NCBI GenBank assembly: GCA_963712115.1 | Contig: CAVQGX010000050.1 | Coordinates: 1-14,594, forward strand | From: an uncultured delta proteobacterium | GTDB taxonomy: Bacteria > Desulfobacterota > Syntrophobacteria > BM002 | Direction of reading: 5' to 3' | DNA: 14,594 bases | Made by a program: the position numbers and the translations under genes | In this document: positions 1 through 14,594 of the stretch, in pieces | How the letters are laid out: the number at the start of each line of letters is the position of its first letter | How positions within the stretch are numbered: position 1 is the stretch's first letter | Notes under the pieces: generated by a model | Seen by the model: only the letters and a program-made list of their open reading frames with translations | What the model was told of the DNA's origin: nothing | Database searches by the model: none

Positions 1-53
1 CCCTTAATTCACACTTTGCTAGAATTTAATCTGGCACAAGATATTGAGAGTAT

Positions 54-98
54 AAACAAGCGGAGCCGAAGCTCCGCATGGTCTTTGAAAAATGAATA
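54..98 (-). terminator. Rho-independent terminator, copy 1 of a repeated element
   Basis: Minus strand GCGGAGC-TTCG-GCTCCGC-TTGTTT directly downstream of the stop at 106; homologous to 1674-1718. Confidence 0.75.
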
Positions 99-105
99 CC
101 TGGCT

Positions 106-1032
106 TCAAAATTGAAGCGTGACACCTGCTGGGGGATTTTGCAAGAAATTCGTTATAGAGGCAATCATCTCTAAGTGAATAGGCATTCCTGCCAATATGA
201 GGGCCAGTTCTGCCCTGTTGAATGAACGCTCAGAGCTGTGAGCAGCGCTATTTCGTGCAATGCGCACAGCCTCTCCTAAAGTGTGAAGGGAACCGGGAAT
301 CATTTCCCACCATTGCCACCATTCAGTTCCCCTACCTTGTGTGCGTAGATTACGCTTAAGTGCCTCGAGCAGCCGTACCGTTGGCTTCCACCTAGCTGAA
401 AAAGACAGAGATGCATTATTACAGTTCTGCCAATCTGAATACCCATCACTATCTGGAGTTGGTGGACTGCAGTTGACTGGAATCGCCTCTAGTAGATCCA
501 TACACATAGTCTCGTTAGCTAAGCCCAGGACAACCATTCCAGCCCTAAAGCATCTTGCTCTTAGACATTGTTGAGCTTCCAGGAGTAACTGAATCTGGCT
601 GTCGCTAACTGTCTGAATACGATCCTGCAAATCTCTTAGCGCTTCAGCCAGATAACCTGGATCATCTACTGAAATAAGTCCATTTGAGAAGTAACTTATA
701 CCTTCCTCAGTGAAATGGAAAGCACCCTGGCTTAAACCCCAGTCGAGAGACTGATCTGTTGTGTAAGGCAGCAATAGACCCATATTTATGGCTGTTTGGT
801 AGACTTTAAGAACTGCATGTCTAAACGGAGGGTATCTGTCCCCTAAGATATGACTTGGTACAATATCCACTTCACGATACTTAGCAAACGCTTTAGCAAT
901 TAACCCACTCTCGCTTTCAACATTGAAATGCTGTCTTACATCGGCTGGATCACTGGAAAGTGCGAATTCTCTTAGCGTTTCCCAAATAATCCTTTTAGCT
1001 TCCAGAGACTCGAATTCTCTCAGGTGAGGCAT
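106..1032 (-). CDS. Hypothetical protein with C-terminal HEPN/DUF4145-like domain (candidate RNase/defence protein)
   Basis: 308-aa ORF. EAQQCLRARCFRAGMVVLGLANE resembles the HEPN/DUF4145 N-terminal helices and RNSAAH is an R-x4-H motif near the C-terminus. Confidence 0.65.
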   Translation of the reverse strand: MPHLREFESLEAKRIIWETLREFALSSDPADVRQHFNVESESGLIAKAFAKYREVDIVPSHILGDRYPPFRHAVLKVYQTAINMGLLLPYTTDQSLDWGLSQGAFHFTEEGISYFSNGLISVDDPGYLAEALRDLQDRIQTVSDSQIQLLLEAQQCLRARCFRAGMVVLGLANETMCMDLLEAIPVNCSPPTPDSDGYSDWQNCNNASLSFSARWKPTVRLLEALKRNLRTQGRGTEWWQWWEMIPGSLHTLGEAVRIARNSAAHSSERSFNRAELALILAGMPIHLEMIASITNFLQNPPAGVTLQF

Positions 1033-1136
1033 GTTATTATCTTTTTGATTTGATATCTGCTTTGCAGTCAGCGAAAGGTAAGTCGCAAAAAGACTGTCTC
1101 TCGAAGATTAGCAAACGTAAAACATCAACTTTTATC

Positions 1137-1166
1137 AGAATACGACAACGAAGTGGGCTGTGTCAA
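1137..1166 (-). promoter_or_regulatory. Sigma70-type promoter for the HEPN-like gene
   Basis: Minus strand TTGACA-N18-TATTCT about 105 bp upstream of the ATG. Confidence 0.55.
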
Positions 1167-1189
1167 ATGAGATGCAGCCTGGAGGGGTG

Positions 1190-1283
1190 GAGAAAAGAAA
1201 ACCCCCACCGAAGCCAGGATATCCGATGGGGGTGGGAAGGAGTCTTAGGTGGGAGAAGCAGGCCACAATTCCCACCCAATTGA
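1190..1283 (-). ncRNA. Candidate two-hairpin small RNA (unit B)
   Basis: Minus strand: stem TTGGGTGGGA/TCCCACCTAA, linker GACTCCTTCCC, then a 12-bp terminator stem ACCCCCATCGGA/TTCGGTGGGGGT followed by TTTCTTTTC. G-U pairs favour the minus strand; -10-like TATCAT just upstream. Confidence 0.45.
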
Positions 1284-1317
1284 TATGATATATAACGGAA
1301 GAGATAAGTTAATACAA

Positions 1318-1462
1318 GAAAAAAAGAAAAAGCCCCCACTGACCCGGCCACTTCCAGCCAATGGGGGCAAAAAACCTGGGCAGGGCTTCAGGTAGGAACC
1401 CTGCCGAGGGCAAGATAAGTCAGAATAGCATAACTGTGGTAGTTTCTGTCAATCCAGAAAAC
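1318..1462 (-). ncRNA. Promoter + candidate two-hairpin small RNA (unit A, copy 1)
   Basis: TTGACA-N19-(TGc)TATTCT, hairpin GGCAGGG..CCCTGCC, then a 13-bp terminator stem GCCCCCATTGGCT/GGGTCAGTGGGGGC with long U-tract; repeated at 3362-3504. Confidence 0.55.
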
Positions 1463-1673
1463 TTACATTTTTGCTTGCAGGTGGGTAGCCAAGAGGGTGG
1501 CGAAAAGAAAGGGACGGACAGGGAAAAAAGGACTAAAAAGGCACGTTTTTTTGTGGTTATGTGGCTAACTATATATCTGTTTTACAGTTATATATTACTG
1601 ATAAAACTATGATAACCAACTAAATTTTAATGTAAATTATTAAGTTTAGTGAAATGAAAGAAGCTCTGTCAAC

Positions 1674-1718
1674 AAACAAGCGGAGCTTCGGCTCCGCTCG
1701 TTCTTTGGAAAGTGAATA
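1674..1718 (-). terminator. Rho-independent terminator, copy 2 of repeated element
   Basis: Minus strand GCGGAGC-CGAA-GCTCCGC-TTGTTT with flanks matching 54-98. Confidence 0.75.
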
Positions 1719-1782
1719 ATAGATTGTCTTTCTTTCTAATTAGTATTGCTCCATGTAATGTTTTGCCTGAATATGTCTGACT

Positions 1783-2175
1783 TCAAGCCTCCAGCTTCAA
1801 TTGGGAAGCCATGTCGTGAATAATCTGACCTTTACGCACATTATCCAAATCCGCCCTTTTGCTTGTTTCAATAACAAAATCCGCAAAAGACTCATAGGCT
1901 TGCTTAAACTTTAGTCTTCGGTCTTCTGCTTTAATTTCTGCCATTATTCTTTGGGAAATAAGATTGAATCCCGATCTTACGGGGTCGTCTCCACCCATGT
2001 CGTTAGAGACTTGATTTAACGTCTCCACTAAATTCAGCCAAAACTCTTTTGGAAATGTAACCTTTGTCTCGAAAACCTTATCTTCATGTTCACTTATTTC
2101 GTTAAAACTAATCTCCATTTCAGGATATCGTTCTGGATTTATGTCCAACATCATAAAACGTCTATCTACCTCCAT
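1783..2175 (-). CDS. Hypothetical protein (130 aa) sharing a C-terminal helical domain with the upstream Zn-PilZ protein
   Basis: Start moved to ATG 2175 (MEVDRRF...), preceded by RBS AAGGAAGGAG. Tail SFADFVIET..DLD..KGQIIH is paralogous to the neighbour. Confidence 0.8.
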   Translation of the reverse strand: MEVDRRFMMLDINPERYPEMEISFNEISEHEDKVFETKVTFPKEFWLNLVETLNQVSNDMGGDDPVRSGFNLISQRIMAEIKAEDRRLKFKQAYESFADFVIETSKRADLDNVRKGQIIHDMASQLKLEA

Positions 2176-2194
2176 AATGCTGCTCTCCTTCCTT

Positions 2195-2242
2195 AAGCGA
2201 AGCCTAAACTCCGTAGTGTTCTTTAACAAATGAATATCCTGG
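2195..2242 (-). repeat. Degenerate third copy of the terminator element
   Basis: aagcgaagcctaaactccgtagtgttctttaacaaatgaatatcctgg aligns to 58-103 aagcggagccgaagctccgcatggtctttgaaaaatgaatacctgg; the stem is disrupted. Confidence 0.65.
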
Positions 2243-2292
2243 TGAGGCTTTGATAACAGCCCGCCTCACGACTTGAGGCTACCGGTCTTGCT

Positions 2293-2922
2293 CTACTTAA
2301 CAAACTTCAATCGCAACGAAGAGGACTTTTCGTGAATCATCTGACCTTTGCAAGCTTTGTCCAAATCCCTTCTACTTATTGTCTCAATGGCAAAATCGGC
2401 AAAAGATTTAAAAATCTCCTTGTTTTGTTGTGTTTTTCTCTCAAATGCCATATCAACCATAATCCTCAGCTGCTTTTCAACCAAAGCAGTGAGAAGCATT
2501 CGGTCTCTGTGTGAAATTCTGGTAAAACGAACGCCCACCCCATGAAACATTGTTTCGTCATCAAGGCAGTAGATGTCAGATTGAACCACTTCCGCATCCA
2601 CAGCTATTCTACGTTTTAAAGGAGGAGTATCTACAATCACCATGGATAATCTTTCTTTTTTCCGTAGACGTATGGAACTACCAATAAAGGCACCACCCGC
2701 ACTAATATCTTTTGCCTGACCAATCACATCCTCTCGGGAGACAGTCAATCTCAGGGGCAAATTGATTCCGACTCGGGGGTATTTGCGTTGTTCCCGGAAG
2801 ACAATTGGAAAAGCTTCGCAGATTGGACACACTTTTTCAATTGACCTTATCATCAGATTGGCTTTGCACCTGGGGCATTTGAATGGCTGCACTTTGACTC
2901 GTTTGATTTCGTAGGAATCCAT
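2293..2922 (-). CDS. Zn-ribbon + PilZ domain + C-terminal shared-domain protein (c-di-GMP receptor candidate)
   Basis: CPRC..CPIC, RKYPR (RxxxR) and DISAGG (DxSxxG) motifs. Likely start is ATG 2922 (or 2934) rather than 3063, which overlaps the upstream gene. Confidence 0.85.
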   Translation of the reverse strand: MDSYEIKRVKVQPFKCPRCKANLMIRSIEKVCPICEAFPIVFREQRKYPRVGINLPLRLTVSREDVIGQAKDISAGGAFIGSSIRLRKKERLSMVIVDTPPLKRRIAVDAEVVQSDIYCLDDETMFHGVGVRFTRISHRDRMLLTALVEKQLRIMVDMAFERKTQQNKEIFKSFADFAIETISRRDLDKACKGQMIHEKSSSLRLKFVK

Positions 2923-2926
2923 AGTG

Positions 2927-3262
2927 CTACTCATGCTGCTCTTTTTCAACCAAGGCAGCAATGTATTGTCTGTCTTCGGGTGATATGTGGATGAACCGAA
3001 TGCCCATACCAAAAACTTTTCTGTTGTGAATATTAAAGGTTCCTGACCAAATCTTCTCAGCAACTACAGAAATGGTTCGTTGTTCAGAAGGCTCTAGAAG
3101 AATAGGGAAGTTTTCTCCAACCCTAGGCTCCTTTGCACAGAAGATGAATACACCGTCAACGCTAATGTCCTTTGTCTCACTCTCTACGGAGCCTTGCGGA
3201 GTTTCAACAACAGCGGGCCAATTGACTAGGATTCTGGGATGTTGACGCCTTTCGATTCCCAT
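2927..3262 (-). CDS. Stand-alone PilZ domain protein
   Basis: ERRQHPR and DISVDG motifs, GMGIRF strand; likely start MGIERR at 3262. Confidence 0.9.
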   Translation of the reverse strand: MGIERRQHPRILVNWPAVVETPQGSVESETKDISVDGVFIFCAKEPRVGENFPILLEPSEQRTISVVAEKIWSGTFNIHNRKVFGMGIRFIHISPEDRQYIAALVEKEQHE

Positions 3263-3333
3263 GAGCGAACACAAATGTTTATTTCTTGGAGGATTATTGC
3301 TTGTACTTCTTCAGAAAGTCTTGAGCTGCTGTT

Positions 3334-3363
3334 AGATTACACGAATGCGGGGAGAACTGGCAA
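3334..3363 (-). promoter_or_regulatory. Sigma70-type promoter for the PilZ cluster
   Basis: Minus strand TTGCCA-N18-TAATCT immediately after the unit A terminator. Confidence 0.45.
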
Positions 3364-3504
3364 GAAAAAAGCCCCCCCTGACCAGTCCAGCAACCAAGGC
3401 CAATGGGGGCATTAAACCTTGGCAGGGCTTTAGGTGAGAACCCTGCCGAGGCGCACCGAAGCTACATTAGCACAAGCGGAGTGGTTTCTGTCTATCCGAA
3501 AAAC
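3362..3504 (-). ncRNA. Promoter + candidate two-hairpin small RNA (unit A, copy 2)
   Basis: TAGACA-N19-(TGc)TAATGT, the same GGCAGGG/CCCTGCC hairpin, terminator GCCCCCATTGGCC..GGTCAGGGGGGGC-TTTTTT; homologous to 1318-1462. Confidence 0.55.
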
Positions 3505-3553
3505 CACCATTTACATAAGATATATAAGAGTGAATATTTTTGGGATTACCCTC

Positions 3554-3582
3554 TTGACATACTTGTCTGATTTTGATAATTT
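3554..3582 (+). promoter_or_regulatory. Promoter of the RHH-integrase operon
   Basis: TTGACA-N17-TAATTT with TGn extension; palindrome GACA-tact-TGTC overlaps the -35. Confidence 0.6.
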
Positions 3583-3614
3583 GTATGTAAAGCATGCAAC
3601 AAGGGGGTGATTAG

Positions 3615-3755
3615 ATGGCAAAGGTAATCATGCTCAGAAACGTGGAAGAGGAACTTCACAGAAGGGTTAAGATGCAAGCGGCAAAAGAGGGAATGACCCT
3701 TCAGGCTTTAGTGACCAAGGCACTCGAACAATACCTTAAAAAAGTTGGGGGGTGA
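3615..3755 (+). CDS. Small ribbon-helix-helix (Arc/ParG/FitA-like) DNA-binding protein, 46 aa, not in ORF track
   Basis: MAKVIMLRNVEEELHRRVKMQAAKEGMTLQALVTKALEQYLKKVGG: strand-helix-G-helix pattern. RBS AAGGGGGTG; stop 5 bp before the integrase ATG. Confidence 0.85.
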   Translation: MAKVIMLRNVEEELHRRVKMQAAKEGMTLQALVTKALEQYLKKVGG

Positions 3756-3760
3756 ACTGA

Positions 3761-4897
3761 ATGGCAACCATTAAGAAAAGAGGTAGTACTTACCAGATTG
3801 ACTACTATGATCCAAGCGGCAAAAGGGTGAGGAAGTCGTTCAAGAAAAGGAAGGATGCTGAAACAGAGTTAGCAGCTCGTCAAGTCAGCATGGCAGATGG
3901 TACATACTTTGAAAAGGCTAAGACCTACACGACGACATTTGAAGAACTGACCGAAAAGTACATAGAGAATTTCAAACACCAGAGATCATTTAAACGGTCA
4001 AAGAGTTATGTGATTGAAGACCTGAAGAAAGAGTTTAAAGGGTATCTGCTGAAAAACATCTCTTATCTGGACATCGAGACATACCGGAACAAGCTAAGAA
4101 ACACTCTCACAGTACATGGCAAGGTCCGCAAAGATGCCACGGTCAACCGATATATGGCTTGCTTGCGCCACATGCTGGCTAAGTCTGTGTCATGGGATAT
4201 GATGGACCGGAACCCGTTTGACAAGGGTGAAAGCCTGCAACTGACGGAGAATAACAGGCGGCTCCGTTACCTGAGTGAAGAGGAAATTCAAACACTCCTG
4301 GCTGAATGCCCGACGAAAGCACCACCGAGGGAGAAAGGGAAGTTTACCCAGGGGCCACAGGCTGTCTACCTGAAGGATTTTATCATCATCGCCATTAACA
4401 CCGGCATGAGAAAGGGCGAGATTCTTTCCTTGAAGTGGGATCAGGTCAGGGGCGAGTTTATCTACCTAGAAAAAACCAAGACGGATAAGGCTAGGCAGAT
4501 ACCTATAAATGACGACCTGGCAGACTGCTTCAAATCCATCAGGAAACGTCAGCCGGTAGGGACCAAATATATCTTTTGTGACCAAAATGGTCACATTTCC
4601 GATATTAAGACCTCTTTCAATGCAGCAATCAAAAGGGCAGGGATTACCGATTTCAGGCCGCACGACCTCAGACACACCTTTGCGAGTCACTATGTCATGC
4701 GTGGGGGATCACTCAGGGCATTGCAGAAAATCCTAGGCCATGCAGACATTAAAATGACCATGCGTTATGCCCATCTATCGAAGGAATTTGCCAGGGAAGA
4801 GATCAAGTTGTTGAACGGTCTTACTTCAGGCAAGAAAAAAGAGGATGGTCACAAAATGGTCACATCCTCCATATCCGATAAAGCTGTCACCAGCTAA
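3761..4897 (+). CDS. Phage-type tyrosine recombinase/integrase
   Basis: N-terminal arm-binding-like region; catalytic TGMRKGE (R), HDLRH (HxxR), LGH and MRY (Y). Confidence 0.96.
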   Translation: MATIKKRGSTYQIDYYDPSGKRVRKSFKKRKDAETELAARQVSMADGTYFEKAKTYTTTFEELTEKYIENFKHQRSFKRSKSYVIEDLKKEFKGYLLKNISYLDIETYRNKLRNTLTVHGKVRKDATVNRYMACLRHMLAKSVSWDMMDRNPFDKGESLQLTENNRRLRYLSEEEIQTLLAECPTKAPPREKGKFTQGPQAVYLKDFIIIAINTGMRKGEILSLKWDQVRGEFIYLEKTKTDKARQIPINDDLADCFKSIRKRQPVGTKYIFCDQNGHISDIKTSFNAAIKRAGITDFRPHDLRHTFASHYVMRGGSLRALQKILGHADIKMTMRYAHLSKEFAREEIKLLNGLTSGKKKEDGHKMVTSSISDKAVTS

Positions 4898-4906
4898 GTT
4901 GTTGAA
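4845..4906. promoter_or_regulatory. att-arm region: tandem ATGGTCACA repeats and IHF-like site
   Basis: ATGGTCACA at 4845-4853 and 4856-4864. TAAGTTGTTGAAA near 4895-4907 resembles IHF YAANNNNTTGATW, next to the tRNA end. Confidence 0.5.
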
Positions 4907-4911
4907 ATAGT

Positions 4912-4988
<77 letters not shown>

Positions 4989-5005
4989 ACCCGGTGTAAA
5001 GTTTA

Positions 5006-5034
5006 CTTATATCAAGTAGATGAAGAAGTGTCAA
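5006..5034 (-). promoter_or_regulatory. tRNA promoter
   Basis: TTGACA-N17-TATAAG on the minus strand upstream of the tRNA. Confidence 0.55.
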
Positions 5035-5208
5035 CGTAATTATTGTTGACCCAGGGCCGAGCAATCTGCTAGTAAAAGAAGTTGATCGATTTTTCCTTGA
5101 GCCCAATATTTCACCCTCCCGCCAAACTGATTGGTGAAATATTGGGGCTAGATAACGCGACGAGTGATGGTGTAAGAGCATGTAACCCCAGATGCGTATA
5201 GCATACCC

Positions 5209-5853
5209 ATGCAAAAACACAACGTCTTTCTCGTTGATGACCACACTATTTTTGCCGAGTCCCTGAAACTTCTCCTAGAAGCCAGACCCGAGTTTTGTGT
5301 GATCGGCAGTACCGACAGCTGCCACTCCGCTATTGACCAGGTCAAGAAGTGTCGACCTGATCTCGTTCTCATGGACATTTCTATGCCCGACCTGAGCGGA
5401 ATCGAGGCGACTCGTCTAATCATTAAAGCACTACCTGACACCAAAGTGGTTGCCCTCACCATGCACAAAGACGAGGGATTTGTTGCCCAGTTTTTTGAAG
5501 CTGGTGGCTCGGGCTATCTAGTGAAAGACGCCGACGCCCAATGCTTATTTGGCGCTCTCAAAGCCATCTGCAGAGGAGAACGATTTCTGAGTCCGTCCAT
5601 ATCGGGCCACCAGATCAAGGGATACGAGGAAATCGGCGAAGAAAAGGATCGACCAAAGCTTTCTCCTCGCGAGAGGGAGGTGCTTAAGCTCATAGCAGAA
5701 GGGAAAAGCAGGAAGGAGATCGGCAAGAGACTCAACATAAGCGTCCGAACTCTGGACACTCACCGCACCAATATTCTCTTGAAGCTTGGCTGCAAGAGCA
5801 CAGCCGAGCTGGTGCATTATGCAGTACGCAGAAACCTTGTTGAACTAATCTGA
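5209..5853 (+). CDS. NarL/FixJ-family response regulator (REC + LuxR HTH)
   Basis: LVDDH, LMDISMP (phospho-Asp), LTMH, YLVKD; C-terminal LSPREREVLKLIAEGKSRKEIG..TLDTHR. Confidence 0.95.
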   Translation: MQKHNVFLVDDHTIFAESLKLLLEARPEFCVIGSTDSCHSAIDQVKKCRPDLVLMDISMPDLSGIEATRLIIKALPDTKVVALTMHKDEGFVAQFFEAGGSGYLVKDADAQCLFGALKAICRGERFLSPSISGHQIKGYEEIGEEKDRPKLSPREREVLKLIAEGKSRKEIGKRLNISVRTLDTHRTNILLKLGCKSTAELVHYAVRRNLVELI

Positions 5854-5905
5854 CCGCCTATAGCAAGCCAACCGAAAGAGTTTCAAACCTCCACTGTTTT
5901 TACAC

Positions 5906-6044
5906 CACGAAGAACACGAAGAGCACAAAGAGCGTAAAGCAAAGCGCATGGCACCAATTCGTTCATTTAAGGGTTATGGGTCATAGGTAATGGGTTATAG
6001 GTAGGATGCATCCCGTAACCCATTACCCATGACCTATTACCTTC
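5906..6044. repeat. 9-mer tandem repeat plus inverted heptamer-array hairpin between convergent genes
   Basis: cacgaagaa/cacgaagag/cacaaagag; then (gggttat gggtcat aggtaat gggttat) inverted to (gtaaccc attaccc atgacct attacct) around palindrome ggatgcatcc. Confidence 0.8.
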
Positions 6045-6048
6045 CTTC

Positions 6049-6873
6049 TCAGAAGAGGGCAATAGTAAGAGCCACAGCTCCCAGCACAAAGCAATAAGGG
6101 GCAAAATAGAATAGCTTTCCCTTACCTACCAAAGATCGCAATAGGCGCAAGGCGATCCAACCGACAAGAAAAGCCGAGAGAAAACCTGCGGCCACCACAT
6201 GCCATTCAGGATAGTTGCCACCTCCGTGAAACGCTTCGAGGGCCAGAGCTCCCAGAATGGCTGGAATGGACAGGAGAAAAGAAAAGCGGAATGCCAGGTC
6301 TGGTTCAAGGCCGAGTAGCATCCCCAGGGTGATAGTGACTCCCGAGCGCGACAGGCCAGGGGTGATTGCCGCGCCCTGAACCAAGCCAATCATCAGGGAG
6401 TCAAATACTCCGGGATTTTCCAGATGCTTGCGGCGCGGCTTGGACCAACGACTCCAGATGAGAAAAAAACCGGTGGTCCACAAACCTAGAGCGACAATGG
6501 CAGGTGAGGCAAAGAGGCGATCGAAGAGGTCCCTTAAAAGTAAACCGATGAAAGCTGTGGGTACGGAACCCACCAGAATCATTAAAGCCATCTTTACGCC
6601 ACTATCCAAACCGTTGGAAGTGGGAGTGGCTTGGGAGGAGGTTGCCTGGCCTATGGCCCTGAAGCAGCCCCTAAGCATCAGGCTCAAATCGCCCCGAAAG
6701 ACCAAGAATACGGCCATGAGGGTACCTACATGTACCGCAATATCAAAAAACAGTTGTGATTCCTGGAATCCTAACAAATGTTGGGCCAGTACCAGATGTC
6801 CTGAGCTGCTAATTGGGAGAAATTCAGTGATACCTTGCAGAGCGCCGAGACACAAGGCCTCCAGGACATTCAT
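6049..6873 (-). CDS. uppP: Undecaprenyl-diphosphate phosphatase (BacA)
   Basis: QGITEFLPISSSGHL and PGLSRSG motifs, FSFLLSIPA, multiple TM segments. Confidence 0.96.
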   Translation of the reverse strand: MNVLEALCLGALQGITEFLPISSSGHLVLAQHLLGFQESQLFFDIAVHVGTLMAVFLVFRGDLSLMLRGCFRAIGQATSSQATPTSNGLDSGVKMALMILVGSVPTAFIGLLLRDLFDRLFASPAIVALGLWTTGFFLIWSRWSKPRRKHLENPGVFDSLMIGLVQGAAITPGLSRSGVTITLGMLLGLEPDLAFRFSFLLSIPAILGALALEAFHGGGNYPEWHVVAAGFLSAFLVGWIALRLLRSLVGKGKLFYFAPYCFVLGAVALTIALF

Positions 6874-7023
6874 AGGTTAAAGCTCTCGTTCTGCGGGGAC
6901 CAAAACTGAGCCGACATAGTGAGATCGTCCAGCAACGCTCACGAGCCAGCCGCTTGGCGAAGAGGTGAGAGTAGGGAGATCATCCCTCCACGGATTATTT
7001 TGCCTTCTACCGGTCCAAGGAGC

Positions 7024-7338
7024 TTAGTAATCTTCCGCACCGAGTGGACGGGTAAAAGTGTACTTGGCAGGTGCCACAACCAGTTTCTGTGCAGCTTCAC
7101 CGGTATTGCCCCCAAGTAGACTGAATGGCAGAGAAACGATGAAGAAGGCTGTGCCTACGGCGAAACCAACCAGACCTAGAGGTCTGAGGAGCACCATATC
7201 AAAGATCATGGCAGGCGCATTCCTGTCTTCTCCGATTACATACTTCTTTTCCGAAGCCAGGGCGGGGGAGACCGCCCAGGTAAAGGCGAGCACAGCTGCA
7301 AGCAGAAAAATAAGTGATTGCTTCCTGAAAGTACCCAT
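7024..7338 (-). CDS. Small exported/membrane hypothetical protein
   Basis: Signal peptide (..SPALA), hydrophobic segment, RPLG motifs; RBS AAGGAGGG. Confidence 0.85.
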   Translation of the reverse strand: MGTFRKQSLIFLLAAVLAFTWAVSPALASEKKYVIGEDRNAPAMIFDMVLLRPLGLVGFAVGTAFFIVSLPFSLLGGNTGEAAQKLVVAPAKYTFTRPLGAEDY

Positions 7339-7691
7339 GGAGACACCCTCCTTGTAAAAGATCAGACTCTAATTCTGGGTGAAAATAGCTGAATGAGTGA
7401 AGAGAATTAATCCATAGTAAGGCAATTTACCACAAATACAGCACATTATGCTATGCAAATGTTGTACCTCTTGCAAGAAACCTGGACAACAATCAGCCTA
7501 ATTTGACCCACTATCATTGGGAGTCAAACACATTACTTGTCTCAGTGCTGTACATGCTGCAATGCTTTAGGGTCTTTTTCCTGGACTTTTGGCAGATGGG
7601 TGACTAAACTTCGAGACTGAGAGAATGGGATGTAAGCGTAAGCTATGGCACGTGGAAGATCTGATTTAGATGTCGGAGGAGGAGATTTATC

Positions 7692-7898
7692 ATGACTACA
7701 ACACCACAGCATTGCCCAGGATACGAATCTTTTAAGGATCTCAAATCTTTCGTTTGCAAGTGTAACAGCTGCGGAGAAGAGAAAGAGATCTTTTCTGACG
7801 AGTTCAACAAGACTCACACATGTGCGAAATGTGGCACCACTATAGATTTTACCACCTGTTCATACGAGGCAGGCGGTGGTACTAGCACTCCTCGTTAA
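7692..7898 (+). CDS. Small Cys-rich zinc-ribbon-like protein
   Basis: Strong RBS GGAGGAGGAG; CPG, CNSCG, EIFSDE, CAKCG. Confidence 0.85.
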   Translation: MTTTPQHCPGYESFKDLKSFVCKCNSCGEEKEIFSDEFNKTHTCAKCGTTIDFTTCSYEAGGGTSTPR

Positions 7899-9058
7899 TC
7901 TCCATCTGCCAACTTCTTTGGCTCTAGAGCTCGGATGGCAGAATTACGAATGGTCCGCAAGGTGCCTGCAACCAGACGCTCCGTATCGTAGCCGGCATGG
8001 AAGGTATTGATGTTGGGTGCGTTAACCCGGCCGATTGCATAGGTCAGCCATTGCACGGTAAGGATGAAATCAAGAAACTGCTGCAGGGGCTGGTTCGAGG
8101 CTGGCGTGTTTACCACCTCAATATTGCGCCCATATTCGACGGGCGTGAAATTTTTGCCAAGGAATTCAGGTTGAAGCCAGATGATCCTGGCATCGAAGAA
8201 TTCGCAGAGCACGGGGACAACTTCCCTTGCTCTGGCAGCAGTATCCTCGTCAAAGATAAGAAAAATAATAGTGTCTTTAGGCCGGGTTATAAAGTAAAGG
8301 GTGTGGCAGTATTCCTCGATGCCAGTGAAGCGTCCCAAGCGATTGAACTCGTGCATTTTGTAACTGGCAAAGCGAGCCACAATTTTTGTCCAACCACTTC
8401 CGAGGAAAAAGGTCTCCCCACTTTCGGCCCAGAATTTGGCTTTGTTGAATAACGGCTCATAAAAGGTGGGTGAGAGCAAGGTGCGAGTGTGGTCGAAGAG
8501 GACTTGCCAGTCTGGTTCTATTTCTGCCGCCCGCATAAGGGTAAGCAGGACCGCCCAGAATGTTTTGGTCTGAGCGACATCGTGATGATAACCAATGTAC
8601 TGCTTGGCGTGCTGGTCTGTATAGTTGGTATCCCCTAGTTCTTCCGGGGGTGATGCATAGATAGGCCAGACCGAAGAGGCCAGTTCTGCTAACGGGCTTT
8701 GTAGGTTGTCGGTTACAGCTACTACCTGGGCGCCTGCGGCCAAAGCTCTCTTTGCTGCCTCTAAAACCCTTACAGTGCGGCCGGAAACGCTGATGCCAAT
8801 GAGGGTATCGCCAGGCTGGAAGTGCTGAGCGGCCTGGCTGGCTTCAAGGGCTGGCAAACCAAATACTTGGCCACGTTCTTTCATCACCCACTGGCCAAAA
8901 AGGGCAGCGCAGTAAGAATCCCCCGATCCTGTGAGAAACACCCTATCCGAAGAAACAGGCCACTCCGGTGGAGGAAGTGTCCGCTGCAAAGAAACAATTC
9001 TCTCCTGCTCGAGCATTTCTTGATAAATGTATTCATCTCTGAGCATGAAGCTTCCCAC
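7895..9058 (-). CDS. Double SIS-domain protein (GlmS C-terminal/AgaS/FrlB-like phosphosugar isomerase)
   Basis: LTGSGDSY, ISVSGRT, AQTKTF, FLGSG..YKMHE and EEYCH motifs; no glutamine amidotransferase domain. Confidence 0.88.
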   Translation of the reverse strand: MGSFMLRDEYIYQEMLEQERIVSLQRTLPPPEWPVSSDRVFLTGSGDSYCAALFGQWVMKERGQVFGLPALEASQAAQHFQPGDTLIGISVSGRTVRVLEAAKRALAAGAQVVAVTDNLQSPLAELASSVWPIYASPPEELGDTNYTDQHAKQYIGYHHDVAQTKTFWAVLLTLMRAAEIEPDWQVLFDHTRTLLSPTFYEPLFNKAKFWAESGETFFLGSGWTKIVARFASYKMHEFNRLGRFTGIEEYCHTLYFITRPKDTIIFLIFDEDTAARAREVVPVLCEFFDARIIWLQPEFLGKNFTPVEYGRNIEVVNTPASNQPLQQFLDFILTVQWLTYAIGRVNAPNINTFHAGYDTERLVAGTLRTIRNSAIRALEPKKLADGD

Positions 9059-9118
9059 CTCCTAGCCCAGCAAGACTATCCCCCGACGGATCTAACTGTC
9101 AATTAGTTACTTCAGACA

Positions 9119-9376
9119 TTTAGTCGATTCGTTCAAATCGTTCAAGTCGTCAATTCGTCGATTAGTCAACTCGTCAAATCGTCAATTTGTAGACGGTTAT
9201 GGTAAACGCTGAACCGAAAACGGTTTCACCATTTGACCAATTTCCTAATTTTCTAATTAACCTTTTTTGTCTGCTGTCCGCTGCCTCCTGCCTGCTGCCA
9301 TCTATCCTCTGTCCTCTGACTTCTACCTATTACAACAAATGACAGCGGAGCGTAGTGACCCAATGACGCCGAAGGC
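9119..9376. repeat. Intergenic degenerate short tandem repeats
   Basis: 8-9-mers tcgtcaa(t/a) at 9119-9190, heptamers tgYctgc/tcctctg at 9268-9325, and aatgac-associated mini-hairpins at 9337-9376. Confidence 0.7.
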
Positions 9377-9526
9377 AAGTAGCTTATGGCCTGCCAGCTG
9401 TCTGCTGATTGCTGTATCTCTCGGCACGCTGATTGCATCGCCGTAGACCAGTCCTTGGTCTGCAAATTCCCCAAAATCTGGTGGACGAAGGAGTGGACAA
9501 TTGGCCGATGAAAGGAGTTTAGCGAG

Positions 9527-10768
9527 TTGAATTCAGTGGTTGTGAGAACACTGTTCTCCCTTATCGTGCCCGGTGGACTGGTGGTCATTTCTACAGCCAT
9601 GCTGGTTTGCCTTGGTATTTCGGACAAATCTCTGTCTGCTCTGGTGCACATTTATCCATATTTGGTTACAGTAGCCGGAATGTTGCTTGGCTGGCGCTTC
9701 AACCGCAGTCGCTTGATTCTCGCCATTCTTGTACTGGCTGTTGCAGACAGAGGATTACTTTTGTTTTCCTCTGCCGCTGCTAGCGGTGGTGCTGCTTCTG
9801 CAGATGTCGGCCGAACCGTCTACAATGCCATTGGCTTTCTCTTGCCTCTGAATCTGGTGTTTGTCTCTCGGGTGAAAGAACGGGGGATTTTAACAGTTCA
9901 CGGCATAATCCGATTGAGTCTCATCTTACTGCAGGTTCTGGGCGTATTTCTCATATGTCGATATCAGGAGTGGGGCCTGGCTGCTTTTCTAGACTATTCG
10001 TTGGCTGAAAAACACTTGCTCTCACGGCTTCCCCTTTCACTGCCTTGTCTTTTTTCCTTTGGCATAGCATTTCTTTCCCTCACCCTTGGTTTTATTCGAC
10101 ACGAGTCGGTAATTGAAAACGGGTTCTTTTGGGCACTGTTGTCGGTTTTCTTGGCTTTCGCCGCAGGCAAGATTGGTCCAATTTCAACGGTCTATTTGGC
10201 TACCGCAGGGCTTGTCCTTGTTGTTTCTGTAATTGAAACTTCCCATACCATGGCATTTCGAGATGAATTGACTGGCATTCCCGGCCGGCGCGCTTTGGAG
10301 GAAAAGCTTCTCCAACTAAGTGGTAACTACACTGTGGCCATGCTCGATATTGACTTCTTCAAGAAGTTTAACGACCGTTACGGCCACGAGGTTGGCGACC
10401 AAGTCTTGCGTTTGGTGTCGTCGAAACTTACTACGATATCCGGCGGCGGCAAACCTTTTCGCTATGGTGGCGAGGAGTTTACCATTATTTTCCCCGGGCT
10501 GAATAGCAGAGCGGCCATTTCTCATCTTGAGAAATTGAGAAAAAGCGTGGAACGGACGCGCTTTGTAGTTCGCGGTAGCCGTCGATCAGGTAAGAGATTA
10601 GAAAAATCGAAGGGGGTTAGAGGATTTCGAAAAAGAGTCAAAGTAACCATAAGTATTGGTGTGGCGGAGAGAAACGGAAAATACAACTCTCCGGAGCAAG
10701 TGCTTATGGCGGCAGACAAAGCTTTGTACCGAGCAAAAAAAGCTGGCCGAAATCGGACCAGCACCTAG
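9527..10768 (+). CDS. Membrane-bound diguanylate cyclase (GGDEF domain)
   Basis: Multi-TM N-terminus; DELTG, DIDFFKKFNDRYGHEVGD, RYGGEEF, TISIGVA, ADKALYRAKKAGRN; TTG start with RBS AAAGGAG. Confidence 0.95.
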   Translation: MNSVVVRTLFSLIVPGGLVVISTAMLVCLGISDKSLSALVHIYPYLVTVAGMLLGWRFNRSRLILAILVLAVADRGLLLFSSAAASGGAASADVGRTVYNAIGFLLPLNLVFVSRVKERGILTVHGIIRLSLILLQVLGVFLICRYQEWGLAAFLDYSLAEKHLLSRLPLSLPCLFSFGIAFLSLTLGFIRHESVIENGFFWALLSVFLAFAAGKIGPISTVYLATAGLVLVVSVIETSHTMAFRDELTGIPGRRALEEKLLQLSGNYTVAMLDIDFFKKFNDRYGHEVGDQVLRLVSSKLTTISGGGKPFRYGGEEFTIIFPGLNSRAAISHLEKLRKSVERTRFVVRGSRRSGKRLEKSKGVRGFRKRVKVTISIGVAERNGKYNSPEQVLMAADKALYRAKKAGRNRTST

Positions 10769-10773
10769 CCCTT

Positions 10774-11150
10774 AATCCCAAATCTACATTCCCCAATCCG
10801 AAATCCGCAGTCCTAAGTGTCTAAAATACCTAAATTTATTTCTCGACCAGCACAGAGGGAATAGCGTCAATGGCTCCTGACCCCAAGCATGGGGCATAGA
10901 GCATGAAGATAAATCCGAAAAGCCCATTCTACCCTCTGCCTGTTTAGCCGGTTAGCCAGTTTGGCCGGTCTTATCGGCAGGCAGCAGCCAGAAGCCAGAG
11001 ATCGGAGGTCGGAAGTCAGAGGTCAGTGAACAGGGTTAAAGCTGATCTCTGACATCCGACTTCTGACTTCTGAGATAGACGACTTCCCCTGCACCTTGTG
11101 CCCTGTGCCTTGCGCCTCTACGCAATCCGCAATCTACAATCTCAAATCCA
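10774..11150. repeat. Intergenic mosaic of heptamer arrays including an inverted array
   Basis: aatccNN arrays at 10774-10815 and 11124-11150; cagaggt-type array inverted against its complement at 10989-11072; tgYgccY array at 11090-11117. Confidence 0.8.
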
Positions 11151-11151
11151 A

Positions 11152-13603: not shown

Positions 13604-13809
13604 TTTTAGTCCTTCCATTACCGAGTGAAGAGACGATGTTCTCTGAGCGTCGATTCTTGCCTAACTTAATCTTTCTGTCAAGAATTCTCCTCGTCTTTGT
13701 TGACTCGCACAATTAGCTGTCTTAACATCACTGAAAGCTTAGATGTCTTGCATATTTCTCTGCTAACCTCCCTAACTCTCTTGAACACCGTTATTAAAGG
13801 AGAAGTAGA

Positions 13810-14594
13810 ATGAAAAAAAATGTAACAGTCTTTGTCCTGATTTTGTCCCTCTTTCTTTTATTCGGATGTACCAAACAAATCATCAAGCCCACACCCACAC
13901 CTGTGCTCGATAACATTTTGAAGAGGGGCGAGTTAGTAGTTGGTACGGCTGCTGGCATGCCCGCCTTGAATATCAAAGCAAAAGACGGCGAAATTATCGG
14001 TTTTGAGGCTGACTTGGCCAAATTAATTGCTGATGGCATGGGCGTGAAACTTAGATTTAAAGAATTGAAATTTGACAAGTTGCTCTCCAGCCTGCAGGCG
14101 GGAGAGGTGGACATGATTTTGTCCTACATGACTATGACCCCCAAGCGAAATTTAAAGGTAGCTTTTGTCGGCCCATACTTTATATCTGGCAAGGCCTTTC
14201 TCACCAAGATTGAAACCATAGCCAAAGCAGAAGAGGCCACGGAAGTAAACAGCGCGAATGTCAGGTTGACCGCCCTCAAAGGCTCCACCAGTCAATATTT
14301 CGTTGAGGCAGTATTACCTAAGGTCCAGTTAATTCCGGCGGAGGACTACGATGAGGCTGTGGATCTTGTGCTAAAGGACAAGGTGCACGCCATGGTTGCC
14401 GACTATCCCATCTGTGTGGTATCCGTCCTTCGTTATCCAGATCAAGGATTACTCTCAGTGGTTACGCCCTTGACCTATGAGCCATATGGTATTGCAGTGC
14501 CATCCTATGACCCACATCTGGTCAACTGGTTGGAAAATTTTCTCTCCATCCTGGAAGAAAGCAGTGCACTGGACGAGCTAACCGAACGCTGGTT
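13810..14594 (+). CDS. Amino-acid ABC transporter substrate-binding lipoprotein (family 3), truncated at window end
   Basis: RBS AAAGGAG; MKKNVTVFVLILSLFLLFGC lipobox; RGELVVGT..DGEIIGFEADLAK..LQAGEVDMILSYMTMTPKR..FVGPY. Confidence 0.93.
   Translation, partial: MKKNVTVFVLILSLFLLFGCTKQIIKPTPTPVLDNILKRGELVVGTAAGMPALNIKAKDGEIIGFEADLAKLIADGMGVKLRFKELKFDKLLSSLQAGEVDMILSYMTMTPKRNLKVAFVGPYFISGKAFLTKIETIAKAEEATEVNSANVRLTALKGSTSQYFVEAVLPKVQLIPAEDYDEAVDLVLKDKVHAMVADYPICVVSVLRYPDQGLLSVVTPLTYEPYGIAVPSYDPHLVNWLENFLSILEESSALDELTERW

Follow-up and report, generated by a model that had tools for sequence, protein, structure and literature searches.

Lineage-wide repeat modules with predicted promoters and terminators frame unrelated cargo genes in a tRNA-Ala island

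The left end of the window (the whole stretch of DNA analysed, 14,594 nt from an uncultured delta proteobacterium) raises the question of how unrelated genes come to stand in the same non-coding frames beside a divergently oriented tyrosine recombinase. The initial annotation described two tandem modules and offered two readings, a modular cargo-exchange system or tandem accretion of sibling elements. The frame repeats were recovered where it had placed them, at 1327-1471 versus 3365-3512 (~147 nt, 75% identity) and at 54-98 versus 1674-1718 (45 nt, 80%). A repeat search within the window returned the longer repeat as two stretches, 1357-1470 versus 3399-3512 (114 nt, 75%) and 1327-1350 versus 3366-3389 (88%), which merge in a BLAST comparison with the whole genome into 147 nt at 75.5% identity (E ~5e-21). 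Each frame is a composite built from several parts, which we designate T, U, C, A and B and which lie as follows.

1..52, minus strand: C element, truncated by the contig end; conserved block ending GTGAATTAAGGG-ATGTAAT
54..98, minus strand: T1, predicted intrinsic terminator closing module 1; hairpin 60-77, UUCG loop on the minus strand, conserved A-rich 5′ flank
106..1032, minus strand: cargo 1, 308-aa protein; winged-helix domain at the N terminus, HEPN-like domain at the C terminus (structure model, invariant RNxAAH motif)
1127..1186, minus strand: predicted cargo-1 promoter; TTGACA 1166-1161, 18-nt spacer, TATTCT 1142-1137 (consensus scan, 10/12)
1187..1307, minus strand: B unit, a further unit resembling U (47.3 bits with covariance model R1); -10-like box rich in AT, hairpin GGGUGGGA...UCCCACC, predicted terminator ACCCCCAUCGG...GGUGGGGGU plus U run
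1318..1471, minus strand: U1, small-RNA-like unit (repeat, folding and covariance evidence); putative promoter with -35 TTGACA in a palindromic GGTGGTTT/AAACCAC-type flank, then a TATGCTATTCT box; hairpin 1 at 1405-1379, loop UUCCUACCUGAAG; predicted terminator hairpin 2 at 1368-1332; U run 1331-1321
1472..1673, no strand: AT-rich spacer between modules; zero BLAST coverage (no other genome copy), no att copy
1674..1718, minus strand: T2, predicted terminator closing module 2; hairpin 1679-1698, whose loop is inverted compared with T1
1783..2172, minus strand: cargo 2c, 129-aa protein (148 aa from a TTG start), no family
2195..2235, minus strand: degenerate T-like copy inside module 2, separating the PilZ genes from the 129-aa gene (nhmmer, E 1.2e-7)
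2293..2934, minus strand: cargo 2b, 213-aa PilZ protein with an N-terminal CxxC...CxxC region (Pfam PilZ, 1.1e-13)
2927..3253, minus strand: cargo 2a, 108-aa single-domain PilZ protein (Pfam PilZ, 1.3e-14)
3254..3364, minus strand: A module, read from sequence as a sigma70-like promoter (TTGCCA 3363-3358, 16-nt spacer, TGTAAT 3341-3336) plus conserved 5′ leader
3357..3513, minus strand: U2, small-RNA-like unit (repeat, folding and covariance evidence); putative promoter TAGACA 3494-3489, TGTGCTAATGT 3474-3464; hairpin 1 at 3447-3421, loop UUCUCACCUAAAG; predicted terminator hairpin 2 at 3410-3371; U run 3370-3365
3615..3755, plus strand: 46-aa ribbon-helix-helix (RHH) protein, first gene of the integrase operon (Pfam FitA-like_RHH, 2.8e-7)
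3761..4897, plus strand: tyrosine recombinase of phage-integrase type (Pfam Phage_integrase, 3.3e-36)
4911..4988, minus strand: tRNA-Ala(GGC), where the island is integrated; a repeat of its 3′ 46 nt (4911-4956) lies at C64:44904-44949, at the other end of the island

As the initial annotation held, the coding content of the two modules is unrelated, one 308-aa protein against two PilZ proteins and a 129/148-aa protein, and all of these genes are encoded on the minus strand and diverge from the RHH and recombinase genes. The 308-aa protein matched no family in Pfam, NCBIfam or PADLOC, and Foldseek gave zero matches at E <= 0.001. The C-terminal half of its AlphaFold model (mean pLDDT 82) nevertheless aligns with at least ten solved HEPN domains (Z 6.3-8.8), and the residues R260-N261-x-A263-A264-H265 are invariant in 25 homologues, so that the label "HEPN-like" is moderately supported for this half of the predicted structure. 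In module 2, the C-terminal tail of cargo 2c resembles that of the 213-aa PilZ protein, and the cargo 2c gene with its flanking T copies is paralogous to C5:6465-7014 (73.5% over 551 nt).

The U element has the appearance of a stand-alone small-RNA unit: an extended -10 box precedes a hairpin that covaries, and the terminator GCCCCC...GGGGGC is conserved. On the strand of the genes (minus), both U copies of the window fold into two hairpins with a U run after the second; their free energies (-49.5 and -51.1 kcal/mol) were equalled by 0 and 3 of 200 shuffles, and the plus strand folds more weakly (-40.4 and -43.2 kcal/mol). When 50 distinct copies from 13 genomes were aligned, pairing was preserved in 95% of cells, a value favoured by the fitting of this alignment (A6) to the model structure. 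Changes on both sides affected all seven pairs of hairpin 1 and six of the 12 pairs of hairpin 2; none of 500 shuffles reached the observed values, and slid controls paired at 43-55%. Frequent G-U pairs (35 of 50 copies at one pair, for example) mean that only the cargo-gene strand fits. Upstream of hairpin 1, TGnTAnnnT occurs in 22 of the 50 copies, 8 nt away in 14 and 15-16 nt away in seven, compared with a mean of 2.0 and a maximum of 7 in shuffled flanks, and a palindromic GGTGGTTT...AAACCACC motif overlaps the putative -35. Also conserved are a pyrimidine-rich hairpin-1 loop (CCUACCU or CUCACCU) and the sequence GCCCCCAYUGG...CCARUGGGGGC followed by the U run. Genes for Hfq and CsrA were not found in the genome (94.4% complete), leaving no evident classical chaperone for U-type RNAs.

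Downstream of the U terminators the predicted promoter modules vary, being sigma70 type A, type B or a sigma54-like TGGCAT-N5-TTGCA. The A module recurs behind U-type terminators at about ten other loci (BLAST matches on C37, C44, C5, C36, C41 and C9); the B block, which in the window follows U in tandem, is found on C46, C13 and C9 as well. At C46:151980-152220, which is 93% identical to positions 1127-1369 of the window, a PilZ gene takes the place of the 308-aa gene. A consensus promoter scan across positions 1-5200 showed no enrichment (12 found, 8.3 +/- 3.3 expected). The 45-nt T element is a GCGGAGC-loop-GCUCCGC hairpin, and a terminator scan calls both 60-77 and 1679-1698. T precedes C by no more than 40 nt in 22 of 74 C copies.

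The distribution of these parts extends far beyond the window. In the genome, a mixed-strain assembly of 4.9 Mb in 70 contigs with 5.99% contamination, nhmmer (E <= 1e-3) finds 73 T copies, 39 U copies, of which 16 include the promoter part, and 74 C copies on 35 of the 70 contigs; all are intergenic, often partial and ragged-ended, and the order of parts differs from locus to locus. The same parts flank a GNAT enzyme, a GATase, an OmpA-family protein, PKD proteins and the 308-aa HEPN-like protein. The combination T+C is present in all 18 other genomes of the family and in none of 12 that represent other families of the class; for U, covariance model R1 matches 12 of 12 congeners and 0 of 8 others; and matches are spread around the closed chromosome of a relative. 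In four congeners the best T+C matches are 90-96% identical, values inflated by the choice of a best match among many copies, against 70-79% for neighbouring housekeeping DNA. Selection for a binding function could by itself explain conservation this high. One 19-mer of C is matched exactly in more than 107 public genome stretches, and summed metagenome-contig depth is high solely over the repeat modules, with heterogeneous flanks and inter-module joints.

Two further patterns characterize the surroundings of the copies. The genome encodes 136 PilZ domains, a family-specific expansion (17-94 matches per genome inside the family, 4-11 outside), and no more than 1 kb separates 34% of T copies and 46% of U copies from one of them, compared with 5% of random points, a 6-10-fold enrichment; T downstream or U upstream is found at only 28 of the 136 domains, which means that PilZ genes do not generally come with these parts. 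Homology breakpoints also accumulate at the parts: among internal ends of inter-contig alignments (at least 600 nt, at least 90% identity, drawn from one mixed-strain assembly, with end points that are not independent), 29 of 367 fall within 40 nt of T, U or C, against 1.7 expected. Assemblers themselves break at repeats, and the outermost 2 kb of the contigs, 5.7% of the genome, contain 43 of 186 copies.

The recombinase belongs to a different level of organization. The left 4.9 kb of the window are part of a strain-variable island in tRNA-Ala, and the 46-bp att repeat is confined to the tRNA, C64 and the empty-site allele on C57; the left part of the island is absent from the assembly. Cargo beside close relatives of the integrase varies among metagenome contigs, and on the three contigs with the closest integrases (79-87% identity) no full-length U was detected. 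Full-length U does lie divergent from an integrase at three loci, namely the window, C39 of the same genome and the tRNA-Pro locus of the relative G011, an arrangement that speaks for some link to the integrase and for which shared modules do not account.

We lean towards the view that both frames are copies of lineage-wide, reusable expression modules, that the integrase moves the island as a whole and that homologous recombination exchanges the cargo. The idea of modular cargo frames thus stands insofar as unrelated genes occupy shared frames, at far more than two places; the proposed link to the neighbouring integrase is not supported, given parts scattered genome-wide. In the arrangement we envisage, U would be transcribed from its own extended -10 promoter into an RNA of ~85-100 nt, and a separate promoter module directly behind it would drive the cargo, module A serving the PilZ genes and unit B with the TTGACA/TATTCT promoter serving the 308-aa gene. 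T, a tetraloop terminator with a conserved 5′ flank, would close the cargo unit, often with C next. Such parts stand in varying order around dozens of unrelated accessory genes, here as in every relative of the family that was searched, and are concentrated in the PilZ-rich flexible genome; the only role of the tyrosine integrase would be whole-island insertion into tRNA-Ala. Cargo would most likely be assembled or exchanged through ordinary homologous recombination among dispersed part copies, as has been demonstrated for the PeSL cassettes of T4-type phages. Reused at dozens of places around unrelated accessory genes, the modules appear to be signs of a flexible genome prone to recombination, not of a cassette system like an integron.

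It is conceivable, at perhaps a minority chance, that the parts are merely the cis-regulatory sites (promoters, operators, leaders and terminators) of one large regulon, kept by selection, spread passively along with PilZ-locus duplications and of no consequence for gene exchange. Their family-only distribution parallels the PilZ expansion, they are enriched near PilZ genes, their cores are extremely conserved, as in the 19-mer of C, and a palindrome covers the -35 of U; yet the same parts flank non-PilZ genes, their order varies, and homology ends precisely at the parts, with unrelated genes adjoining. Appreciably less probable is the insertion of T, U and C as non-autonomous, MITE- or REPIN-like mobile elements that carry promoters and terminators into intergenic regions. 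Tens of intergenic copies per genome, interspecies conservation above that of housekeeping DNA and assembly breaks near copies would all suit such elements, but the copies are often partial with ragged ends, a non-systematic look at the T, U and C alignments revealed neither terminal inverted repeats nor target duplications, no T, U or C core lies less than 600 nt from any of the four Y1-transposase genes, and phage and plasmid collections gave no match.

That two sibling islands accreted in tandem at tRNA-Ala, each bringing one frame, as the initial annotation had considered, now seems very improbable: the region is a true tRNA-integrated island, and a sibling layout exists on C39, where U diverges from an integrase and a gene of RHH size, but neither a second 46-bp att repeat nor another integrase lies between the modules, the window (which lacks the island's left part) holds a single integrase, and frames occur at many loci that have none. 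Accretion might still have taken place further left, in the part of the island that the assembly lacks. Least credible of all is an integron-like system, with the repeated elements as sites where the neighbouring recombinase would capture cassettes. Co-oriented gene units divergent from a tyrosine recombinase, and cargo that differs beside its close relatives, recall such a system. Against it, the enzyme is phage-type, as first described, scoring 49.3 bits with the NCBIfam integron-integrase model (cut-off 265) over roughly its last 60 residues only, and its own site is the tRNA-Ala 3′ end; no RYYYAAC...GTTRRRY pair of the attC type is present in 1-3620, in agreement with the earlier reading; T forms a perfect hairpin of 7-8 bp that has a loop of 4 nt and comes with a U run; every unit carries a promoter-like module of its own; and the elements occur genome-wide.

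Among known systems, the closest analogues of these reusable modules appear to be the PeSL cassettes of phages and "putative mobile promoters". PeSLs (promoter-early stem-loop) are described as regulatory cassettes of T4-type phages, with mini-circles demonstrated as well as activity of the promoter or terminator (Arbiol et al. 2010, PMC2839356; Comeau et al. 2014, PMC4122927). As there described, they share with our parts a small composite build of sigma70-like promoter and terminator stem-loop, repetition amid many small non-essential genes, and intergenome similarity that starts and stops at the cassettes, with unrelated genes swapped between them. PeSLs reside in phage genomes, whereas the present parts occupy a cellular chromosome and its islands, fall into several distinct families (T, U, C, A and B), include in U an extra covarying hairpin with the look of an RNA gene, and have activities that are predicted. 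Putative mobile promoters are defined by Nijveen, Matus-Garcia and van Passel (2012, PMC3575422) as sequences of at least 50 nt and at least 80% identity upstream of non-homologous genes in one genome, a description that fits 1127-1369 and its C46 counterpart, for example (93% over 243 nt, different genes). Their families are mostly pairs in that account, which also names the intergenic repeats REP/BIME/RIP, REPIN, ERIC, Correia and BOX (PMC3575422), whereas families here have 39-74 members, the kit extends to terminators and an RNA-like unit, and across the lineage it is tied to a single expanded gene family.

Integron arrays resemble the locus in that unrelated genes form units of one orientation, divergent from a tyrosine recombinase, but the locus lacks an IntI-type enzyme, attC sites and a single Pc promoter, and its elements are genome-wide. 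REP/BIME/RIP, REPIN, ERIC, Correia and BOX sequences are dispersed hairpin modules, some with promoters or terminators, in mosaic sub-module combinations. The parts described here are likewise dispersed intergenic hairpin modules in mosaic combinations; unlike REP-type repeats, they showed no RAYT association, have lower copy numbers, keep a fixed orientation relative to flanking genes and cluster in accessory regions instead of being evenly spread. Multi-copy small-RNA families such as LhrC of Listeria and NsiR1 of Nostoc have C-rich loops or tandem promoter-plus-terminator units. The predicted U RNA would be similarly short, with its own promoter and terminator, a pyrimidine-rich loop and an occasional tandem arrangement, but its hairpin is much more variable among copies, and the terminator is the conserved part.

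The non-coding elements that frame the two gene modules of the window are best read, we believe with somewhat more confidence than doubt, as a reusable kit of expression modules that double as recombination linkers. The repeated frame described in the initial annotation was recovered in a repeat search of the window, in which 1357-1470 and 3399-3512 align over 114 nt at 75% identity and 1327-1350 and 3366-3389 are 88% identical; BLAST fuses both stretches into one match of 147 nt at 75.5% (E ~5e-21 against the genome). The shared end element is also present (54-98 and 1674-1718; 45 nt, 80% identity), and the cargo genes, all on the minus strand, diverge as described from an RHH gene and a tyrosine recombinase. 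The window spans the entire contig C50, so the assembly holds nothing to its left. The locus comprises small-RNA-like units (U1, U2), terminator elements (T1, T2), a third element (C), a promoter module (A) and a second U-like unit (B), arranged as follows.

Features of the locus, listed from the tRNA gene toward the contig end
4988..4912, minus strand: tRNA-Ala(GGC)
3761-4897, plus strand: tyrosine recombinase, stopping 15 nt short of tRNA-Ala(GGC)
3615-3755, plus strand: RHH gene
3513-3357, minus strand: U2, with TAGACA box, TGTGCTAATGT box, hairpin 1 (3447-3421), hairpin 2 (3410-3371) and U run
3364-3254, minus strand: module A, immediately 3' of U2, with TTGCCA, 16-nt spacer, TGTAAT and conserved leader, followed by two PilZ genes
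3253..2927, minus strand: PilZ protein
2934..2293, minus strand: PilZ protein
2235-2195, minus strand: degenerate T-like copy between the PilZ genes and the 129-aa gene
2172 or 2229..1783, minus strand: 129/148-aa protein
1718-1674, minus strand: T2, after the 129-aa gene
between T2 and U1: 200 nt of unique AT-rich DNA
1471-1318, minus strand: U1
1307-1187, minus strand: B, 3' of U1
1166-1137, minus strand: predicted promoter TTGACA-18-TATTCT, between B and the 308-aa gene
1032..106, minus strand: 308-aa protein
98-54, minus strand: T1, 3' of the 308-aa gene
52-1, minus strand: C, last in the series and cut off by the contig end

Minus-strand folding beats plus-strand folding for U1 and U2 alike. 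At 3481-3510 and 1443-1470, overlapping the -35 of U, lies a palindrome (GGTGGTTTTTCG-N-TTGACAGAAACCAC) that looks, by its sequence, like an operator; it is kept in the window, on contig C39 and in the closed chromosome of a relative (G011), and has about 20 short matches across the genome, each of them weak by BLAST.

Among the cargo, the 308-aa protein has 39 database homologues of ~313 aa without a Pfam domain, and a Foldseek search of its predicted model against PDB returned nothing at E <= 0.001. The model (pLDDT 82) has an N-terminal winged helix that aligns with a JetA chain at Z 8.9, and a C-terminal bundle (residues 140-300) that aligns with 2hsb at Z 8.8 and with at least nine more HEPN entries at Z 6.3-7.5 (VIA-align), a range that helical bundles can reach by chance. 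HEPN is a four-helix fold defined by an Rx4-6H motif, and RNxAAH is invariant in 25 sequences of the present family. Because the Z values lie within the chance range of helical bundles, we go no further than to call the modeled C-terminal domain HEPN-like, the term already used in the initial annotation. The 129-aa protein and the 213-aa PilZ protein have similar C-terminal tails (1805-1890 and 2321-2406; 74% over 86 nt, 46% over 54 aa). Two contigs, C5 and C31, carry paralogues of the 129-aa protein, one of which has a T copy on either side.

The initial annotation had linked the frames to the island that carries the recombinase. Copies are instead scattered genome-wide, the very outcome that it had named as fatal to such a link. 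In the assembly (4.9 Mb, 70 contigs, 94.4% complete, 5.99% contamination), iterated nhmmer searches gave 73 hits for T, among them two palindromic copies hit again on the opposite strand, 39 for U, with 16 of the 39 extending to the promoter part, and 74 for C; together they occupy 35 of the 70 contigs. The copies also form co-oriented clusters, as at C3:108-128 kb, where 14 lie on a single strand among small genes. Their combinations vary: C comes next, no more than 40 nt on, for 22 of the 73 T hits, U comes next within 250 nt for 7 of them, and 11 of the 39 U hits have a C no more than 150 nt behind. The predicted promoter modules 3' of U-type terminators differ as well: type A at ~10 loci, type B at four, and several variants that carry a sigma54-like TGGCAT-N5-TTGCA box. 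Sigma54-type boxes directly 3' of U-type terminators, and then another hairpin-terminator unit, are found at C5:12487+, C66:28851+, C3:109712+, C58:1262-, C3:110123+ and L061:15990-16090.

Contig ends are enriched four-fold for these elements, with 43 of 186 copies lying no more than 2 kb from one, compared with 5.7% of the genome, and several contigs, C50 among them, end inside C. Such repeats account for the breaking of assemblies of this group in accessory regions, a point of relevance to annotation. Separately, an insertion sequence of ~1.4 kb is present in at least eight near-identical copies (99.5-99.9%; for example C30:19252-20657, C42:10786-12192, C53:19455-20864, two on C63, and on C62 and C35), some of which adjoin C elements.

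Evidence that the parts may act as crossover points comes from the ends of homology within the assembly. When contigs were aligned with one another (600 nt or more, 90% identity or more), 367 distinct internal ends were obtained. Zones reaching 40 nt from a copy of T, U or C take up 0.46% of the genome, which predicts 1.7 ends there; 29 were counted (14 at T, 14 at C and 1 at U), the ends being non-independent and drawn from one mixed-strain assembly. C3:123609-124358, C13:18511-17762 and C46:151169-151900 are similar until a T copy and divergent beyond it, C36:23455-26018 and C54:3519-6081 stop just short of one, and C42:2194 and C53:18718 start at a C copy. Contigs of four metagenome runs (sediment, estuary, other; all DNA), compared at a likeness threshold of 90%, reach summed depths in the hundreds at window positions 1-174 and 3307-3480, with the 308-aa gene at about zero; loose ends are heterogeneous at positions 42-44 and 98, and joints with short sides of 20-40 nt place C beside B or U. 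Depth, loose ends and joints are consistent with free recombination of the parts.

The island itself is of a familiar kind. The 3' 46 nt of the tRNA (4911-4956) are repeated at 100% identity at C64:44904-44949, 106 nt from the end of C64, and contig C57, which matches window positions 4888-14594 at 97.4-98% identity, runs from the tRNA straight into the C64 flank (99.4% over 330 nt; empty site C57:33468-33848). Because it joins the tRNA directly to that flank, C57 is the empty site of another strain, whose DNA was assembled into the same bin, and the 46-nt repeat and this empty site together identify the integrase, the RHH gene and both modules as a strain-variable island in tRNA-Ala. The hallmarks of a tRNA-integrated island are thus all present (the integrase beside the 3' end of the tRNA, that end repeated directly at the opposite border, and a related strain with the site empty), with the middle of the island absent from the assembly. 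Close integrase relatives on metagenome contigs have different neighboring cargo. One of 79% identity also adjoins tRNA-Ala(GGC) and carries small ORFs without a Pfam family and a C copy at the end, one of 84% has two ORFs without a Pfam family and a T copy at the end, and beside one of 87% different DNA starts 35 nt past the position of U2; no U was detected by HMM beside these three. Full-length U does lie divergent from more distant integrases, on C39 (29.6% identity) and at the tRNA-Pro locus of G011 (39%), the latter with no att repeat within 40 kb.

The initial annotation offered two explanations for this arrangement, integron-like cargo exchange and tandem accretion of sibling elements. 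An integron array likewise lies divergent from an adjacent recombinase gene, and here the resemblance stops. The recombinase is not of the IntI type, in keeping with the phage-type look given to it in the initial annotation (TIGR02249, 49.3 bits against a cut-off of 265, with the match limited to residues 281-342); it also scores only 37.8 bits against NF011946, with its cut-off of 435. No RYYYAAC/GTTRRRY core pair 47-157 nt apart occurs in positions 1-3620, in agreement with the earlier failure to recognize attC, and the frames are genome-wide. Integron cassettes are promoterless, with one Pc promoter beside attI, whereas each unit here has its own predicted promoter-like modules; attC, found at the ends of cassettes, contains R''/L''...L'/R' sites with RYYYAAC and GTTRRRY cores, whereas T is a perfect short hairpin followed by a U run. 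An integron-like cassette system is not supported. Tandem accretion, in which each module would be a sibling element inserted beside the other, is not supported either, there being no att copy between the modules. REPIN repeats were considered as well; these adjoin a RAYT (Y1 transposase) gene and rely on it. No core of T, U or C lies closer than 600 nt to any of the four Y1_Tnp genes in the genome, and a link to RAYT was discarded.

Closer parallels to the proposed kit of expression modules and linkers are found in phages. In T4-type phages, a PeSL is a small cassette that couples a sigma70-like promoter to a terminator stem-loop; PeSLs sit in hyperplastic regions, where genes are shuffled by PeSL-PeSL recombination (PMC2839356, PMC4122927). 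By sequence, T then C, U and module A are candidates for such a composite, with predicted activity. PeSLs are repeated in variable regions with small accessory genes, and the present elements occur in co-oriented small-gene clusters, in a strain-variable island and four-fold more often near contig ends. The ends of insertions, deletions and replacements fall at PeSL cassettes, and 29 of the 367 homology ends described here fall at T, U or C copies. PeSLs belong to T4-type phage genomes and give mini-circles; the present genome is cellular, and T+C (positions 1-100) is without a match in phage and plasmid collections. A further study defines putative mobile promoters as sequences of at least 50 nt and at least 80% identity that precede non-homologous genes of one genome; it counts over 4,000 families, mostly pairs, and gives their mode of movement as unknown (PMC3575422). 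Window 1127-1369 and C46:152220-151980 form such a pair, with 93% identity over 243 nt and, on C46, a PilZ gene in the place of the 308-aa gene. Module A reaches 74-84% over 104-133 nt at four loci, and U1 and U2 share only 75.5%, against a threshold of 80%. The present case fits the descriptions of both PeSLs and mobile promoters in mode of working. It differs from both in being cellular, in having several large families of parts, one of them RNA-like, and in a lineage-wide tie to one expanded gene family.

That family encodes PilZ proteins, which are c-di-GMP receptors, and its expansion is unusually large and lineage-specific. The genome has 136 PilZ domain matches in 4.9 Mb, most of them in proteins 100-200 aa long with a single domain; counts run from 17 to 94 (17-94) elsewhere in the family and are 4-11 in 12 genomes of the class that belong to other families. 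A PilZ domain lies no more than 1 kb from 34% of T copies and 46% of U copies, compared with 5% of random points, and no more than 5 kb from 66% and 82%, compared with 16%. Only 28 of the 136 domains have a co-oriented T no more than 1.5 kb downstream or a U no more than 800 nt upstream. Among 90 ORFs of five cluster regions scanned with Pfam, single-domain PilZ proteins were common, accompanied by FHA, VpsT-like, GerE regulator, GGDEF, GNAT, GATase, OmpA and PKD proteins and by transposases.

We tentatively propose, while regarding it as rather doubtful in this full form, a chromosomal counterpart of the phage PeSL system in uncultured sediment Desulfobacterota, in which at least five portable non-coding parts, including a small-RNA gene family of more than 40 copies, are crossover points for more than 100 PilZ and other accessory genes. 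The small-RNA genes would share a common terminator scaffold and vary in their hairpins, and dispersed copies of the parts, serving as crossover points, would have built and would still reshuffle the PilZ and accessory repertoire, on tRNA-integrated islands and elsewhere. So far, the shuffling of genes by way of regulatory cassettes has been documented in T4-type phages, and for mobile promoters only deduced from statistics. If the parts act both as expression signals and as recombination linkers, they would provide a cellular case, and a route by which one family reached 50-136 PilZ genes per genome compared with 4-11 in relatives of its class. In the freely readable articles that the searches covered, we found no report of modules like these from Desulfobacterota, and none of so large a PilZ expansion. 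Horizontal regulatory transfer was reportedly described by Oren et al. in 2014.

The case for U as an RNA rests on 50 distinct copies from 13 genomes, in which 95% of cells pair in an alignment that was fitted to the model and so favors pairing. In hairpin 1 all 7 pairs vary on both sides, and in hairpin 2 6 of 12 do so; none of 500 shuffles reached the observed values, and slid partners pair at 43-55%. Only the cargo-gene strand can accommodate the numerous G-U pairs, which at one position make up 35 of 50. A TGnTAnnnT box precedes hairpin 1 in 22 of the 50 copies, with a spacing of 8 nt in 14 copies and of 15-16 nt in seven, compared with a mean of 2.0 and a maximum of 7 in shuffled flanks. 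The terminator is the conserved part of U and hairpin 1 is of several types, that of the window having a pyrimidine-rich loop, CCUACCU or CUCACCU. Because a separate promoter comes after its terminator, we predict that U is a stand-alone small-RNA-like unit, not a cargo leader, and the family would add a large new set of candidates to a phylum with few known small RNAs. Rfam (E <= 1) has nothing for U, T or C, the nearest match, to anti-hemB at 1324-1407, being at chance level (20.1 bits against a gathering score of 49.5), and no RNA run was listed as covering positions 1-5000. Inspection by eye of downstream-gene leaders revealed no convincing cis targets for the hairpin loops of U, and Hfq (PF17209) has no match in the 94.4%-complete genome.

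The C consensus ends in CTCAAYATCTTGTGCCAGATTAAATYCCAGCNRAGTGTGAATTAAGGG followed by ATGTAAT, its invariant core is GTGAATTAAGGGATGTAAT, and at its 74 sites it is usually followed within 40-80 nt by a predicted promoter-like module. The core could fold as AUUA-AGGGAUG-UAAU. RNAalifold gave no consensus structure for an ungapped stack of copies, and by eye some have complementary flanks (AGUGUG/CACACU, AAUGU/ACAUU) that are absent in others. The SELEX consensus for CsrA is RUACARGGAUGU, which the loop AUUAAGGGAUGUAAU resembles, and the AUUA-AGGGAUG-UAAU form is likewise similar to a CsrA site; CsrA (PF02599) has no match in the 94.4%-complete genome, and the idea was set aside. The 5' part of C resembles the IHF consensus.

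The kit appears to be confined to one lineage. T+C was matched in all 18 other genomes of the family, 17 of them of the same genus, and in none of 12 genomes of five other families of the class; on the closed chromosome of G011 the hits are distributed over the entire replicon. A covariance model of U built from 12 copies (R1) matched all 12 congeners, with 4-26 matches each, and none of eight other genomes. Public genomes contain the 19-mer core of C without mismatch in more than 107 stretches, almost all from MAGs labeled Desulfobacteraceae, Desulfobacterota, Syntrophobacterales/Syntrophobacteria or Deltaproteobacteria; a few MAGs under other labels have single hits. The top T+C matches in G015, G009, G005 and G011 reach 90-96% identity, a figure inflated by taking the best of many copies, and the housekeeping DNA beside the island (5209-9058) is 70-79% identical in the same four relatives and 85-87% in G016. 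Blocks of heptamer- or octamer-based repeats lie at 5972-6041 and 9142-9193, with a GGTTATGGGTCATAGGTAATGGGTTA palindrome and TCAANTCG units, and the first of these has numerous short matches in congeners.
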